Shown here: positions 385 through 4,630 of the stretch, one piece after another
How positions within the stretch are numbered: the first letter of the stretch is position 1
How the letters are laid out: the number at the start of each line of letters is the position of its first letter
IMG/VR virus record: IMGVR_UViG_2663763286_000024
Length of the DNA: 4,630 bases
Direction: 5' to 3' (one strand)
Source: a virus
Lineage: Duplodnaviria; Heunggongvirae; Uroviricota; Caudoviricetes
Notes under the pieces: generated by a model
Seen by the model: only the letters and a program-made list of their open reading frames with translations
Databases searched by the model: none
What the model was told of the DNA's origin: nothing
Program-made: the position numbers and the translations under genes

Positions 385-470
385 GTTCCCGGAAAATTTT
401 CATAAATAGCGAAAACCCGCGAGGTCGCCGCCCCGTAACCTGTCGGATCGCCGGAAAGGACCCGCAAAAT
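286..470 (-). other. cos site (cosB - cosN - cosQ side) of a lambdoid phage
   Basis: Reverse complement of 422-433 is GGGCGGCGACCT, the lambda 12-nt cohesive end. The roughly 45 nt on the cosB side (377-421) and 30 nt on the other side (434-465, CGTAACCTGTCGGATCGCCGGAAAGGACCCG) match my recollection of the lambda left and right termini with few differences. Confidence 0.75.
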
Positions 471-632
471 GATAATAATTATCATCTACATGTCACAACG
501 TGCATCTACGCCATCAAACCACGTCAAATAATTAATTATGACGCAGGTATCGTATTAATTGATCTGCATCAACTTAACGTAAAAACAACTTCAGACAATA
601 CAAATCAGCGACACTGAATACGGGGCAACCTC

Positions 633-827
633 ATGTCAACGAAGAACAGAACCCGCAGAACAACAACCCGCAACATCCGCTTTCCTAACCAAATGATTGA
701 ACAAATTAACATCGCTCTTGATCAAAAAGGGTCCGGAAATTTCTCAGCCTGGGTCATTGAAGCCTGCCGTCGGAGGCTAACGTCAGAAAAGAGAGCATAT
801 ACATCAATTAAAAGTGATGAAGAATGA
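633..827 (+). CDS. ylcI: Small basic ribbon-helix-helix-like DNA-binding protein (YlcI/DUF3950-like), 64 aa
   Basis: ATG at 633 with GGGG 7 nt upstream, 64 codons to TGA. Arg/Thr-rich N-terminus, then a predicted beta-strand (IRFP), helix (NQMIEQINIALDQ), G-x-S/N turn (KGSGN) and helix (FSAWVIEACRRRL), as in Arc/MetJ/CopG proteins. Size and position next to cos match the DLP12 ylcI locus as I recall it; the symbol is tentative. Confidence 0.6.
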   Translation: MSTKNRTRRTTTRNIRFPNQMIEQINIALDQKGSGNFSAWVIEACRRRLTSEKRAYTSIKSDEE

Positions 828-991
828 ACATCCCGCGTTCTTCCCTCCGAACAGGACGATATTGTAAATTCACTTAATTACGAGGGCATTGCAGTAATTG
901 AGTTGCAGTTTTACCACTTTCCTGACAGTGACAGACTGCGTGTTGGCTCTGTCACAGGTTAAGTAGTTTGAATGATTAGCAGTTATGGTGA

Positions 992-1198
992 TCAGTCAAC
1001 CACCAGGGAATAATCCTTCATATTATTATCGTGCTTCACCAACGCTGCCTCAATTGCCCTGAATGCTTCCAGAGACACCTTATGTTCTATACATGCAATT
1101 ACAACATCAGGGTAACTCATAGAAATGGTGCTATTAAGCATATTTTTTACACGAATCAGATCCACGGAGGGATCATCAGCAGATTGTTCTTTATTCAT
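992..1198 (-). CDS. ybcW: Small acidic hypothetical protein, 68 aa (YbcW-like lambdoid moron)
   Basis: ATG at 1198-1196 (minus) with GGAG 7 nt upstream, 68 codons. Synteny (between the cos-proximal RHH gene and the DUF1398-like gene near bor) and length match DLP12 ybcW and a lambda right-end ORF as recalled. AT-rich. Confidence 0.6.
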
Positions 1199-1246
1199 TT
1201 TGTCGCTCCATGCGCTTGCTCTTCATCTAGCGGTTAAAATATTACT

Positions 1247-1272
1247 TCAAATCTTTCTGTATGAAGATTTGA
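1247..1272. promoter_or_regulatory. Perfect 9-bp inverted repeat TCAAATCTT-N8-AAGATTTGA in the divergent intergenic region between the 68-aa and 136-aa genes
   Basis: Seen directly: 1247-1255 and 1264-1272 are exact reverse complements. Located 49 bp upstream of the minus-strand start at 1198. Candidate operator or 5' leader hairpin. Confidence 0.3.
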
Positions 1273-1483
1273 GCACGTTGGCCTTACATACATCTGTCGG
1301 TTGTATTTCCCTCCAGAATGCCAGCAGGACCGCACTTTGTTACGCAACCAATACTATTAATTGAAAACATTCCTAATATTTGACATAAATCATCAACAAA
1401 ACACAAAGAGGTCAGACCAGATTGAAACGATAAAAACGATAATGCAAACTACGCGCCCTCGTATCACATGGAAGGTTTTACCA

Positions 1484-1894
1484 ATGGCTCAGGTTGCCAT
1501 TTTTAAAGAAATATTCGATCAAGTGCGAAAAGATTTAAACTGTGAATTGTTTTATTCTGAACTAAAACGTCACAATGTCTCACATTATATTTACTATCTA
1601 GCCACAGATAATATTCACATTGTGTTAGAAAACGATAACACTGTGTTAATAAAAGGACTTAAAAAGGTTGTAAATGTTAAATTCTCAAGAAATACGCATC
1701 TTATAGAAACGTCCTATGATAGGTTGAAATCAAGAGAAATCACATTTCAGCAATACAGGGAAAATCTTGCTAAAGCAGGAGTTTTCCGATGGGTTACAAA
1801 TATCCACGAACATAAAAGATATTACTATGCCTTTGATAATTCATTACTATTTACTGAGAGCATTCAGAACACTACACAAATCTTTCCACGCTAA
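1484..1894 (+). CDS. ybcV: Hypothetical protein, DUF1398/YbcV-like lambdoid moron (136 aa from the ATG at 1484; the frame is open from 1361)
   Basis: The frame is open 1361..1894. The ATG at 1484 has a strong Shine-Dalgarno (GGAAGG at 1470-1475, 8-nt spacer) and gives 136 aa, matching the recalled length of E. coli YbcV. Alternative starts are TTG 1361 (177 aa) and ATG 1442 (150 aa, no SD). Strongly AT-rich compared with the neighbouring lysis genes. Confidence 0.7.
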
Positions 1895-2185
1895 ATCATA
1901 ACGTCCGGTTTCTTCCGTGTCAGCACCGGGGCGTTGGCATAATGCAATACGTGTACGCGCTAAACCCTGTGTGCATCGTTATTAATTATTCCCGGACACT
2001 CCCGCAGAGGAGTTTCCCTGTCAGGGCTGCGGACATAGTTAATCCGGGAATACAGTGACGATCCTTCGCATCTGACATACATTAATAAATATTAACAATA
2101 TGAGATTTCAACTCATTGTTTAGGGTTTGTTTAATTTTCTACACATACGATTCTGCGAACTTTAAAAAGCATCGGGAATAACACC

Positions 2186-2479
2186 ATGAAAAAAATGCTA
2201 CTCGCTACTGCGCTGGCCCTGCTTATTACAGGATGTGCCCAACAGACGTTTACTGTTCAAAACAAACCGGCAGCAGTAACACCAAAGGAAACCATCACCC
2301 ACCATTTCTTCGTCTCTGGAATTGGGCAGAAGAAAACTGTCGATGCAGCCAAAATTTGTGGCGGCGCAGAAAATGTTGTTAAAACAGAAACCCAGCAAAC
2401 ATTCGTAAATGGATTGCTCGGTTTTATTACTTTAGGCATTTATACTCCGCTGGAAGCGCGTGTGTATTGCTCACAATAA
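2186..2479 (+). CDS. bor: Bor outer-membrane lipoprotein (lambda Bor / Iss family, serum-resistance associated), 97 aa
   Basis: Translation MKKMLLATALALLITGCAQQTFTVQNKPAAV... matches lambda Bor as I recall it. Signal peptide with lipobox LITGC. Opposite strand to the lysis cassette and immediately downstream of Rz, as in lambda. Confidence 0.93.
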   Translation: MKKMLLATALALLITGCAQQTFTVQNKPAAVTPKETITHHFFVSGIGQKKTVDAAKICGGAENVVKTETQQTFVNGLLGFITLGIYTPLEARVYCSQ

Positions 2480-2486
2480 TTGCATG

Positions 2487-2510
2487 AGTTGCCCATCGAT
2501 ATGGGCAACT
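2487..2510. terminator. Hairpin (10-bp stem AGTTGCCCAT / ATGGGCAACT, 4-nt loop) between convergent bor and Rz; possible bidirectional terminator
   Basis: Perfect inverted repeat at 2487-2496 and 2501-2510, 8 nt after the bor stop and immediately after the Rz stop. There is no clear U-tract on either side, so the terminator call is weak. Confidence 0.35.
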
Positions 2511-2972
2511 CTATCTGCACTGCTCATTAATATACTTCTGGGTTCCTTCCAGTTGTTTTTGCATAGTGATCAGCCTCTCTCTGAGGGTGAAATAATCCCG
2601 TTCAGCGGTGTCTGCCAGTCGGGGGGAGGCTGCATTATCCACGCCGGAGGCGGTGGTGGCTTCACGCACTGACTGACAGACTGCTTTGATGTGCAACCGA
2701 CGACGACCAGCGGCAACATCATCACGCAGAGCATCATTTTCAGCTTTAGCATCAGCTAACTCCTTCGTGTATTTTGCATCGAGCGCAGCAACATCACGCT
2801 GACGCATCTGCATGTCAGTAATTGCCGCGTTCGCCAGCTTCAGTTCTCTGGCATTTTTGTCGCGCTGGGCCTTGTAGGTAATGGCGTTATCACGGTAATG
2901 ATTAACAGCCCAAGACAGGCAGACGATGATGCAAATAACCAGAGCGGAGATAATCGCGGTTACTCTGCTCAT
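2511..2972 (-). CDS. Rz: Rz spanin, inner-membrane subunit (i-spanin), 153 aa
   Basis: Translation [55 protein letters not shown]... matches lambda Rz as recalled. Start overlaps the R stop (ATGA). Confidence 0.93.
2570..2752 (-). CDS. Rz1: Rz1 spanin, outer-membrane lipoprotein subunit (o-spanin), 60 aa, embedded in Rz in the +1 frame
   Basis: Translation [60 protein letters not shown] has a lipobox (VVGC) and a proline-rich segment, and matches lambda Rz1 as recalled. Confidence 0.88.
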
Positions 2973-3445
2973 ACCTCAATCTCTCTGACCGTTCCGCCAG
3001 CTTCTTTGAATTTTGCAATCAGGCTGTCAGCCTTATGCTCGAACTGACCATAACCAGCGCCCGGCAGTGAAGCCCAGATATTGCTGCAACGGTCAATTGC
3101 CTGACGAATATCACCGCGATCAATCATCGGTAAAGCGCCACGTTCTTTAATCTGCTGCAATGCCACTGCGTCCTGGCTTTTGGGGGAGAAGTCTTTCAGG
3201 CCAAGCTGCTTACGGTAAGCATCCCACCAGCGTGAAAGAAGCTGATAACGTCCGGCTGCTGTTGATTTGAGTTTGGGGTTTAGCGTGACAAGTTTGCGAG
3301 GGTGATCGGAGTAATCAGTAAATAGCTCTCCGCCTACAATGACGTCATAACCATGATTTCTGGTTTTCTGCCGTCCGTTATCCGTTCCTTCTGACCATGC
3401 CACCATATCGAGGAAAGCTTTACGCTGAGGATTAAGATTTTGCAT
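2969..3445 (-). CDS. R: Endolysin R (lambda-type lytic transglycosylase), 158 aa
   Basis: Translation ...[46 protein letters not shown]... matches lambda R as recalled, including the catalytic-Glu region WSEGT. Only the first 7 residues differ (MQNLNPQ here, MVEINNQ in lambda as recalled). Start lies inside the 3' end of the holin gene. Confidence 0.93.
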
Positions 3446-3749
3446 TTTTCACCCCTGTCAGTCGTTCCCAGAAGTATGTCAGTGCAACCGAACCCATCGC
3501 ACCACTAATCCCCGCTGTCGCGAGAATCATGTAAATACTGAATCCACTTTCGATACTGATCAGGCCACCAATAACACCGGTGAATCCCGACACCACTATC
3601 TGAGCCAAAGCATTTATCCAGCTCCACGTTGCTTTACTCTGCTTCACATCTATCAGGTAGCGGACCAGACCGCCCCAACCTGCGATGATCAGCAAAACGA
3701 GCCAGAACGCTCCGGCAAGGCTCTCTTTTTCGTGCATATGAATAGCCAA
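3432..3749 (-). CDS. Holin, class I topology (three predicted TMDs), about 101-105 aa; not lambda S by sequence
   Basis: Sits in the S position directly upstream of and overlapping R. Three hydrophobic segments (LAGAFWLVLLIIAGWGGLV, WINALAQIVVSGFTGVIGGLI, FSIYMILATAGISGAMGSVAL) and a short charged C-terminal tail. The ORF-track start at 3749 is a TTG; the first ATG is at 3737 (codon 5). Sequence is unlike lambda S (MKMPEKHDLLAAILAAKEQG...). Confidence 0.8.
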   Translation of the reverse strand: MAIHMHEKESLAGAFWLVLLIIAGWGGLVRYLIDVKQSKATWSWINALAQIVVSGFTGVIGGLISIESGFSIYMILATAGISGAMGSVALTYFWERLTGVKNAKS

Positions 3750-3854
3750 TGTTTCGCCGCCGACAAAAGGCCGGGACGTTAAATGTCAGAAATCAGGCTC
3801 ACGGGGTAATTTAACGACAAAGCACGGAGTTGATGCTCCCCGCAAGCCTGGAAT

Positions 3855-3877
3855 AAAAAAGCCAGCATGTAGCTGGC
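3855..3877 (-). terminator. Rho-independent terminator on the minus strand (tR'-like), upstream of the holin gene
   Basis: Minus strand reads GCCAGC-TACAT-GCTGGC followed by TTTTTTATT (stem 3877-3872 and 3866-3861, U-tract 3860-3855). Lies about 105 nt upstream of the holin start, analogous to lambda tR' at the end of the 6S leader. Confidence 0.5.
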
Positions 3878-3953
3878 AACAGAGGGTTAAGCAATATCAA
3901 CTCAACAGCTGAAGACACCCTGGCTGGGGTACGTTGGAAGGATACTCACCGCC

Positions 3954-3989
3954 CAGAAACAGAAAAGCCCAAGGCTTTAAACCTCGGGC
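3954..3989 (-). terminator. Second hairpin plus U-rich tract on the minus strand (8-bp stem with one G-U, 7-nt loop)
   Basis: Minus strand reads GCCCGAGG-TTTAAAG-CCTTGGGC followed by TTTTCTGTTTCTG. Lies between the candidate late promoter and the tR'-like terminator. Confidence 0.35.
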
Positions 3990-4046
3990 TTGAATTTGGA
4001 TTACGGCCAGTGCGTACAACATTGGCAAAATATCAGATTTACATAA

Positions 4047-4075
4047 AATATATGATTTTTAATCCAGTTTTGCAA
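4047..4075 (-). promoter_or_regulatory. Candidate sigma70 late promoter (pR'-like): TTGCAA - 17 bp - TATATT on the minus strand
   Basis: -35 at 4075-4070 and -10 at 4052-4047 on the minus strand, with a predicted start near 4040, about 185 nt upstream of the terminator U-tract at 3855 (lambda 6S RNA is about 194 nt). A weaker alternative is TTGCCA (4028-4023) - 17 bp - CGTAAT (4005-4000). Motif inspection only. Confidence 0.3.
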
Positions 4076-4249
4076 TATCTTGCTGTGAAAATGTGGTCTT
4101 TTGTTTTGAACGTGTTTTCGTTAAAAGCAATAAAGCTTGGCTATCAAGCTGTAGAAAAATGTGCTTCATTGCAACCCAGCGTTCAGTAAATGTCTCAGAC
4201 CAGTTTTTTGATGTCACTCCCACCAGTGATGCCAACTCCTGGTATTCAT
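4059..4249 (-). pseudogene. 3' fragment of an ORF truncated by IS copy 2; positionally where the late antiterminator Q gene would be
   Basis: The minus-strand frame is open from the IS junction (4249) for 62 codons (EYQELASLVGVTSKNWSETFTERWVAMKHIFLQLDSQALLLLTKTRSKQKTTFSQQDIAKLD) to TAA at 4061-4059. It has no start codon, because its 5' part would lie beyond the IS. It does not resemble lambda Q as I recall it, so identity is unverified. Confidence 0.3.
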
Positions 4250-4274
4250 TGAACCGCCCCGGAAATCCTGGAGA
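4250..4274 (+). repeat. Left terminal inverted repeat (IRL) of IS copy 2
   Basis: TGAACCGCCCCGGAAATCCTGGAGA; 22 of 25 positions match the reverse complement of 137-161; TG...CA termini typical of the IS3 family. Confidence 0.7.
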
Positions 4275-4303
4275 CTAAACTCCCTGAGAAAGAGGTAAAC
4301 AGG

Positions 4304-4630
4304 ATGACTAAAAATACACGTTTTTCCCCCGAGGTCCGTCAACGGGCAGTTCGTATGGTTCTGGAAAGTCAGGGCGAATATGACTCACAATGGGCGGCAA
4401 TTTGTTCCATTGCCCCAAAGATTGGCTGTACACCAGAGACTCTGCGTGTGTGGGTTCGTCAGCATGAGCGGGATACCGGGAGTGGTGATGGTGGACTCAC
4501 CACCGCTGAACGTCAGCGTCTGAAAGAGCTGGAACGTGAAAATCGTGAACTGCGCCGCAGTAACGATATCCTTCGCCAGGCTTCCGCTTATTTTGCGAAG
4601 GCGGAGTTCGACCGCCTCTGGAAAAAATGA
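4304..4630 (+). CDS. IS3-family transposase OrfA (HTH DNA-binding and leucine-zipper protein), 108 aa
   Basis: ATG at 4304 with AGAGG about 9 nt upstream. N-terminal helix-turn-helix region and C-terminal heptad-like [25 protein letters not shown]. Ends with TGA at the window edge, directly after an A6 run (4622-4627) that would be the IS3-type -1 frameshift site into OrfB. Confidence 0.88.

Follow-up and report, generated by a model that had tools for sequence, protein, structure and literature searches.

The pR' transcript of phage lambda spans S, R and Rz, crosses cos and enters the head and tail genes. According to the lambda annotation, lambdap79 lies in sense on this path, and bor and lambdap78 are antisense to it. 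Of the open reading frames of the best-studied phage, lambdap78 and lambdap79 belong to the few that still lack a biochemical function. With a CRISPRi roadblock on lambdap79 the EOP was ~1e-4, although lambdap79 is counted among the non-essential genes; the authors of that work documented polarity within the late transcript. Roadblocks on bor and lambdap78 had no effect, and lambdap78 was scored non-essential. Lambda recombinants carrying ybcV::Kan, ybcV being the K-12 name of lambdap78, are viable. A single preprint of September 2026 reports that lambdap79 is an activator of Vulcan, a NIR-domain NADase abortive-infection system. Co-expression of lambdap79 and Vulcan was toxic, and lambdap79 was deleted in 7/7 sequenced lambda-vir escapers of Vulcan, which still form plaques and probably lost the gene by recombination with Qin (bioRxiv 10.64898/2026.09.04.749371). 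A terminase large subunit from phage Bas36 is also used in the experiments of that preprint. Lambdap79 is like the phage-encoded activators of abortive-infection and NADase systems in activating Vulcan and in being lost from escapers, and differs from them as a small non-structural accessory protein without relatives outside Escherichia lambdoid phages.

For lambdap78, a close comparison is offered by bor and lom, the lysogenic-conversion morons of lambda. It shares with bor the strand, the position, the orientation against the late genes, the low GC content and the dispensability. Bor differs from it in being a lysogen-expressed lipoprotein with a defined phenotype, serum resistance, whereas the lambdap78 product is predicted to be cytoplasmic.

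The DNA analyzed here, called the window, is 4630 bp long and represents the right end of a lambdoid prophage flanked by IS3-family (IS1203/IS629-type) sequences. It contains the following features.

1-119: C-terminus of an IS transposase
633-827, plus strand: ylcI (DUF3950, YlcI/YnfO family; Pfam E 5.4e-20, NCBIfam YlcI_YnfO_N), convergent with ybcW
992-1198, minus strand: ybcW (lambdap79), a 68-aa ORF
1199-1483: AT-rich spacer of 285 bp between ybcW and ybcV
1361-1483, plus strand: 41-codon N-terminal extension of the 177-aa lambdap78 annotation in lambda, probably untranslated
1484-1894, plus strand: ybcV (lambdap78), a 136-aa DUF1398 ORF
2186-2479, plus strand: bor (Pfam Lambda_Bor E 1e-30; lambda annotation), downstream of ybcV on the same strand
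2511-2972, minus strand: Rz/Rz1
2969-3445, minus strand: endolysin
3432-3749, minus strand: holin
3861-4075, minus strand: late-promoter-like element (TTGCAA-17-TATATT) with two intrinsic terminators after it, similar to pR'/tR'
4304-4630: IS orfA with a frameshift pseudoknot

The IS start at 4249 coincides with the end of prophage homology. Over 389-4249, the prophage part shares 99.9% identity with an icd-adjacent prophage of E. coli 2013C-4974, and its IS-bounded form was absent from the complete E. coli genomes searched. Sequences resembling the ybcW-ybcV region are common, with 3347 of the 5426 complete E. coli genomes carrying them. The remnant contains neither Q nor terminase genes. The match to isrJ at 3964-4043 is weak, its 27.8 bits falling short of the gathering score of 37, and no Rfam RNA was matched within 992-1894. 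An earlier note on this DNA, made from the letters alone, had placed the two genes in the Rz-to-cos interval, which is correct for a lambdoid prophage.

Positions 900-2000 of the window are 98.7% identical in DNA to phage lambda 46937-48036. Many E. coli prophages match them at 99.9-100% identity, and there RefSeq calls the genes ybcV and ybcW. YbcW is identical at 68/68 residues to lambdap79 (NP_597782) and to YbcW of the K-12 prophage DLP12 (b0559), leaving no difference at the protein level. Its match to phrog_657 extends over positions 1-68 of 68 (E 7.5e-48), which places it in that family. Its location is shared as well, with ylcI/cos on one side and the DUF1398 gene on the other, and so is its orientation to the lysis genes. 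The longer ybcV ORF is identical at 174/177 residues (98%) to lambdap78 (NP_597781), which equals K-12 YbcV (b0558); two to three substitutions separate lambdap78 from the YbcV of the window. In the 136-aa protein, Pfam DUF1398 (PF07166) is matched over its complete profile (1-119 of 119; E 2e-46; 157.4 bits against a cut-off of 22), and a full-length match was obtained to its paralogue YdfO, encoded by prophage Qin and solved by NMR as PDB 2HH8 (E 1.6e-70). Since no function is established for the DUF1398 family, none can be transferred from it to YbcV. Judging from these identities, the locus is already known, and both genes are long-catalogued lambda accessory genes, not new ones. The locus as a whole is probably best explained as two independent, catalogued lambda accessory genes carried on an IS-bounded prophage remnant. 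What sets the ybcW of the window apart from that of lambda is this context. With no Q in the remnant, any expression of the gene must be Q-independent or driven in trans.

Both ORFs are evidently real genes. For ybcV, dN/dS lies at 0.10-0.39 against five diverged copies, with few substitutions. The core of ybcW (codons 17-68) gives a dN/dS of ~0.2 against the HS/mEp460 type, again with few substitutions, and codons 1-16 vary freely in the same comparison. The start codon of ybcW is preceded by GGAG 8 nt upstream. YbcW has a pI of 4.9 with 11 acidic and 7 basic residues, and YbcV has a pI of 9.2 with 19/136 aromatic residues. The coordinates, lengths and acidic/basic contrast are those of the earlier note, where the pair was described as a 68-aa acidic ORF and a 136-aa basic, aromatic-rich, DUF1398-like ORF. 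The GC content is 0.396 in ybcW, 0.393 in the spacer and 0.319 in ybcV, the most AT-rich gene of the window, compared with 0.49-0.51 in S/R/Rz and 0.439 in bor. The same note was right that the pair is more AT-rich than the lysis genes (0.319-0.396 versus 0.49-0.51) and that the two genes diverge from a 285-bp intergenic region. No transmembrane segment or signal peptide was predicted in YbcW or YbcV, and Bor and holin used as controls scored clearly. Both proteins are therefore predicted to be soluble, YbcV in the cytoplasm. The structure models are of only moderate quality (pLDDT 62 and 65). The AF2 model of YbcW (pLDDT 62) is a low-confidence three-helix bundle with helices at 14-24, 29-39 and 43-62.

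The experiments on lambda described above indicate that both genes are accessory and dispensable, and that ybcW is dispensable for plaque formation. This fits the description of the two as accessory cargo of the Rz-to-cos interval, given that they are dispensable, AT-rich and patchy in distribution. The late/lysis genes S/R/Rz run in the same direction as ybcW and opposite to the DUF1398 gene in all loci examined; the direction of ybcV is that of bor and ylcI. Because it always lies in the sense of the late operon, ybcW would be made in the lytic growth of an active phage, by Q-antiterminated read-through from pR'. Its activation of Vulcan likewise implies that lambdap79 is produced during lambda-vir infection. 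In decayed prophages, ybcW would instead be transcribed from weak spacer promoters controlled by host factors. The window keeps a pR'-like promoter and terminators but has lost Q, so transcription of its ybcW would have to start in the spacer, as in DLP12 of K-12. ybcV would be a lysogen-side, stress-responsive moron like its neighbor bor, reading against the late operon. For its paralogue ydfO, an induction of ~100-fold by an ionic liquid is reported, and overexpressed YdfO is cited as raising resistance to oxidative stress. This split between late (ybcW) and lysogenic (ybcV) expression is what we infer from gene orientation and from the literature on lambda and K-12. Divergent transcription from the spacer, as put forward in the earlier note, accordingly holds for the geometry but not as the sole route of expression, in view of the orientation of ybcW with the late operon and the polarity seen by CRISPRi.

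The independence of the two genes is seen in the composition of related loci. Raw BLAST of 5426 complete E. coli genomes, counted as places that are not locus-resolved and with phylogeny ignored, gave 2160 places for ybcW-like DNA and 3868 places for ybcV-like DNA. The arrangements found, and the segment that distinguishes them, are as follows.

Lambda/DLP12 type: ylcI, ybcW, ybcV, bor
E. coli HS and phage mEp460_ev081: ybcW, no DUF1398 gene
Qin type and phage ev099: ynfO then ydfO, no ybcW
Strain 03_3013 and phage Tritos: ybcW and a DUF1398 gene, with gnsB replacing bor
~790-1408 of the window: ybcW cassette of ~620 bp, spanning the ylcI 3' end and ybcW together with the inverted repeat and FNR site (alignment with the Qin-type loci L004 and L005)

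The alignment with Qin-type ynfO-ydfO loci places the ybcW cassette where these have the 3' tail of ynfO, which fits the loss of lambdap79 by recombination with Qin reported in the preprint. In the HS-type locus, the right-hand boundary of homology lies near 1365. The cassette would thus be gained and lost among lambdoid phages by recombination. As expected of morons, ybcW and the DUF1398 gene each have a fixed position at which some close relatives carry the gene and others do not, and ybcV and ybcW have a base composition unlike that of the flanking genes. Since there are loci with ybcW alone, with the DUF1398 gene alone and with both, a functional pair is not supported. These arrangements indicate that ybcW and ybcV are not a working pair and that neither needs the other. 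The earlier note had proposed a functional pair, had suggested comparing genomic neighborhoods across lambdoid prophages, and had named lack of conservation as a pair as a result that would speak against it. The comparison showed either gene alone or both, with no obligate co-occurrence, and the proposal falls on its own terms. The two genes are therefore best studied separately.

Because YbcW of the window is identical in sequence to lambdap79, it would be expected to activate Vulcan as well, and the Vulcan link provides an experimental handle on ybcW. The suggestion that the locus is a host-interaction, anti-phage or anti-defense module is borne out in so far as lambdap79 is connected with defense, but not as regards two co-functioning proteins. 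The note's remark that no function had been assigned to either gene still applies to YbcV and needs updating for YbcW. YbcW gave no remote homologue in Pfam (E up to 10), NCBIfam or PDB by sequence and profile searches, and all Foldseek hits of its AF2 model (pLDDT 62) in PDB had E above 1. The fold and homology searches made here, a kind of check that the earlier note had proposed, yielded a biochemical function for neither protein. Most apparent divergent YbcW homologues proved to be frameshift-scrambled lambda from error-laden reads of lambda control DNA and were rejected; they were left out of conservation analysis and modeling. A scan of contigs across other genomes likewise recovered mostly lambda contamination in unrelated species. 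With contaminating lambda reads set aside, the YbcW family is very small and restricted to lambdoid elements of Escherichia. Variants of YbcW include the HS/mEp460 form, which is 79% identical, and P0318, at 52%.

One reading that goes beyond a catalogued accessory gene is that YbcW is a late-expressed effector of host takeover or anti-defense, sensed by Vulcan directly or through its activity and retained to counter some other host function. Several triggers of defense systems are themselves anti-defense proteins, such as Ocr for PARIS. Activation of Vulcan, from which phages escape only by losing the gene, would fit such a role, as would a helical core under purifying selection joined to 16 N-terminal residues free to evolve, and a patchy, cassette-like distribution typical of arms-race genes. 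However, defense systems also detect proteins that have no anti-defense role, and no homology or fold match to a known protein was found in the searches made. The protein is mildly acidic, with a composition unlike that of a DNA mimic, and no fitness cost of its loss has been reported. We regard this reading as tenable but unlikely.

An extended form of it would make YbcW a late effector that disables a host defense or stress pathway and YbcV/YdfO a lysogen-side protective factor, acting in stress tolerance or phage exclusion. If this speculative proposal were true, the Rz-to-cos interval would hold one offensive and one defensive gene side by side, and the variable N-terminal tail of YbcW together with the gain and loss of its cassette would record an arms race. 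We consider it distinctly unlikely as a whole.

The spacer between the two genes contains the following sites.

1247-1255 and 1264-1272: perfect 9-bp inverted repeat, TCAAATCTT-N8-AAGATTTGA
1375-1398, minus strand: FNR site assigned to 'ybcW' by K-12 ChIP-chip, with the core TTGAC-ATAA-ATCAT at 1380-1393 and the center at 1386.5
1406-1422, minus strand: PdhR box ATCTGGTCTGACCTCTT, a gSELEX site in the K-12 ybcV/ybcW spacer, exact 17/17 match
1425-1442, plus strand: tandem AAACGATAA, two copies, just upstream of ybcV

The FNR sequence of the window is an exact 24/24 match to the site published from FNR ChIP-chip in K-12, where it was assigned to 'ybcW' (PMC1802558). In a K-12 pdhR mutant, ybcV mRNA fell 10.0-fold and ybcW mRNA 8.9-fold (PMC7660256). 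The PdhR core GGTCAGACCAGATTGAA is kept in Qin-type loci without ybcW. These FNR and PdhR sites, both published from K-12, are the sole sites in the spacer with experimental backing. K-12 has changes in one of the tandem AAACGATAA copies, and strain 03_3013 (locus L006) has them in both. In the K-12 literature, Hha binds and induces ybcW, and ybcVW mRNA rises within 5 min of damage by a DNase toxin. Because both mRNAs fall with loss of PdhR and rise after DNA damage in K-12, the spacer may act as shared control DNA for ybcW and ybcV in loci that have both. K-12 RNA-seq lists ybcW-ylcI as a convergent excludon (PMC12288877). A consensus sigma-70 scan found no promoter-like site on either strand of the spacer, which fits weak or activator-dependent promoters; weak, activator-dependent spacer promoters are likely. 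If FNR is placed at -41.5, ybcW could start near 1345, with TAGTAT (1356-1351, minus strand) as the -10 element. A start near 1232 with TAATAT as the -10 element is another possibility.

The perfect 9-bp inverted repeat, which the earlier note had correctly located in the spacer, had been taken there for an operator-like element. Among dinucleotide shuffles, a repeat of this kind turned up in 1.75% of those made from the 285-bp spacer. Of shuffles made from the entire 4.6-kb window, 31% had one or more. In light of the latter figure, the repeat is statistically unremarkable as a feature picked by eye from 4.6 kb. A stronger and longer palindrome lies elsewhere in the window, at 2486-2511. In K-12 the repeat has one mismatch, an A-to-G change that breaks a pair on the ybcW sense strand. 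In strain 03_3013 it is split by a 16-bp insertion and its arms are altered, and in HS it is degenerate. No compensating change was found among these three. The repeat is thus not conserved among homologous regulatory regions as a repressor operator would be, and its decay without compensation does not bear out the operator interpretation. On this comparison, it appears to be a feature of lambda-type sequences only, not a conserved operator or control site, and is the wrong place to look for regulation.

The repeat might also work as RNA: a hairpin within a long 5' leader of ybcW could influence the stability or translation of the mRNA, and would do so only in lambda-type phages. The hairpin does form in the minimum-energy fold of a modeled 147-nt leader (whole-leader z -2.5), and the geometry of the FNR site would put the start near 1345, upstream of the hairpin. 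However, the start of this leader is hypothetical, the A-to-G change of K-12 breaks a pair of the stem, and the structure is lost without compensation in strain 03_3013 and HS, which makes a function of this kind highly improbable.

The same observations bear on the proposal that the locus is one co-functioning divergent module, toxin-antitoxin-like or serving defense or anti-defense, with the repeat as its operator. Its ingredients are real: the genes diverge, a small acidic protein is paired with a larger basic one, and the repeat is perfect. Both mRNAs do respond together to PdhR loss and to DNase-toxin damage, and if the TAATAT -10 element (1244-1239, minus strand) were used, the repeat would cover -15 to -40 of the ybcW promoter. 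Against this, prophages and viable phages are found that carry only one of the two genes, in either combination, so that the obligate co-occurrence of a toxin-antitoxin or defense module is lacking for ybcW and ybcV. The repeat decays without compensating changes, and lambda is viable after the loss of either gene alone, with no toxicity reported. PADLOC defense models gave no significant match to either protein (best E 9e-4 and 0.017, partial and to unrelated models). A toxin-antitoxin reading was rejected on the single-gene loci and the PADLOC result, and a co-functioning module of any kind seems to us most improbable.

Almost certainly mistaken is the idea that YbcV is a virion head or envelope protein, which derives from database labels ('head protein' for phrog_413 and for lambdap78 in RefSeq, 'putative envelope protein' in older records) and which we rejected because lambdap78 is antisense to the late operon, scored non-essential by CRISPRi and dispensable in viable ybcV::Kan recombinants, has no signal peptide or transmembrane segment under conditions where Bor and holin score clearly, and is retained and expressed in cryptic prophages without head genes. 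The 'head protein' label of lambdap78 is therefore probably wrong.

The lambda annotation of this gene probably needs a second correction, in its length. The frame of the 41-codon extension that makes up the 177-aa form contains stop codons in four other lineages (L004, L005, L006 and ev099), and its start codon is lost in L006. No Shine-Dalgarno sequence precedes the TTG of the extension, and GGAAGG lies 9 nt ahead of the ATG at 1484. Given the stops, the missing ribosome-binding site of the extension and the GGAAGG at the ATG, the real product would be the 136-aa form, in which the DUF1398 domain begins at residue 8.

IS1203/IS629-type sequence encloses the prophage fragment and has the same orientation at either end; a transposase C-terminus lies at one end and orfA at the other. 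The fragment has lost Q as well as the cos/terminase side. This exact IS-bounded configuration was found in no complete E. coli genome of the collection searched. The elements considered here are listed below.

Features of the prophage remnant (window coordinates)
1-388 and 4250-4630: IS1203/IS629-type sequence on both flanks, same orientation
1-119: transposase C-terminus
4304-4630: orfA and ALIL frameshift pseudoknot
1974-2063: long imperfect hairpin between ybcV and bor
2486-2511: palindrome GAGTTGCCCAT-CGAT-ATGGGCAACTC with 11-bp arms, between the convergent bor and Rz stop codons
3432-3749, minus strand: holin, Phage_holin_3_3 (LydA-type), by Pfam
3861-4075, minus strand: late-promoter-like element (TTGCAA-17-TATATT), followed by two intrinsic terminators

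The block adjoining the holin gene, comprising R, Rz, bor, ybcV, and ybcW, is lambda-like. The S holin of lambda belongs to a Pfam family other than Phage_holin_3_3, and the juxtaposition of this holin with the lambda-like block suggests that there may be a mosaic junction within the lysis cassette. Within the stretch from 3861 to 4075, an Rfam match to isrJ at 3964-4043 scored below threshold (27.8 bits versus 37) and extends exactly from the promoter-like element to the first terminator. This span raises the possibility that sRNAs of the isrJ type are the short pR'-tR' transcripts made by lambdoid prophages.

At the ybcW end of the block, YlcI (64 aa; window 633-827) and YnfO (77 aa; positions 2710-2943 of L004, a Qin-type locus lacking ybcW) differ solely at their C-terminal tails. 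Their sequences part at the left edge of the ybcW cassette, and thus the end of the adjacent gene is reshaped whenever the cassette is acquired or lost. In Qin-type loci, the coding tail of ynfO contains the PdhR-box core.

In the RefSeq record of lambda, lambdap78 (ybcV) is annotated as a 177-aa "head protein", with an N-terminal extension corresponding to window 1361-1483 (NC_001416 47453-47575). Both the annotated start and the product name appear to be wrong: other lineages carry stop codons in the frame of this extension, and lambdap78 can be dispensed with and runs antisense to the late operon.

The palindrome between bor and Rz looks like a bidirectional terminator-type hairpin devoid of a T-run. 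It is stronger than the perfect 9-bp inverted repeat (1247-1255/1264-1272) that the earlier note had described as operator-like in the ybcW-ybcV spacer. The ybcV-bor hairpin contains a perfect 10-bp inverted repeat (1987-1996/2043-2052), inside which a second stem (CCGCAG...CTGCGG) is nested, and the fold of the entire ybcV-bor spacer gave a z of -2.45. This hairpin could serve as a terminator or processing site between ybcV and bor.

Exact copies of the lambda segment were also observed in assemblies from dozens of unrelated species, including Enterococcus, Kitasatospora, Cohnella, Flavobacterium, and Shewanella (L011-L046 of the genome-contig scan). These low-coverage contigs, of ~3.5 kb or ~48 kb, are interpreted as lambda control or spike-in DNA. 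The frameshift-scrambled lambdap78 and lambdap79 (ybcW) "homologues" filling protein databases (matches P0001-P0120 and P0241-P0387) also derive from error-laden reads of such DNA. Over this 1.1-kb stretch, the window shares 98.7% identity with "Campylobacter phage CJLB-4" (MW057783), just as it does with lambda itself.
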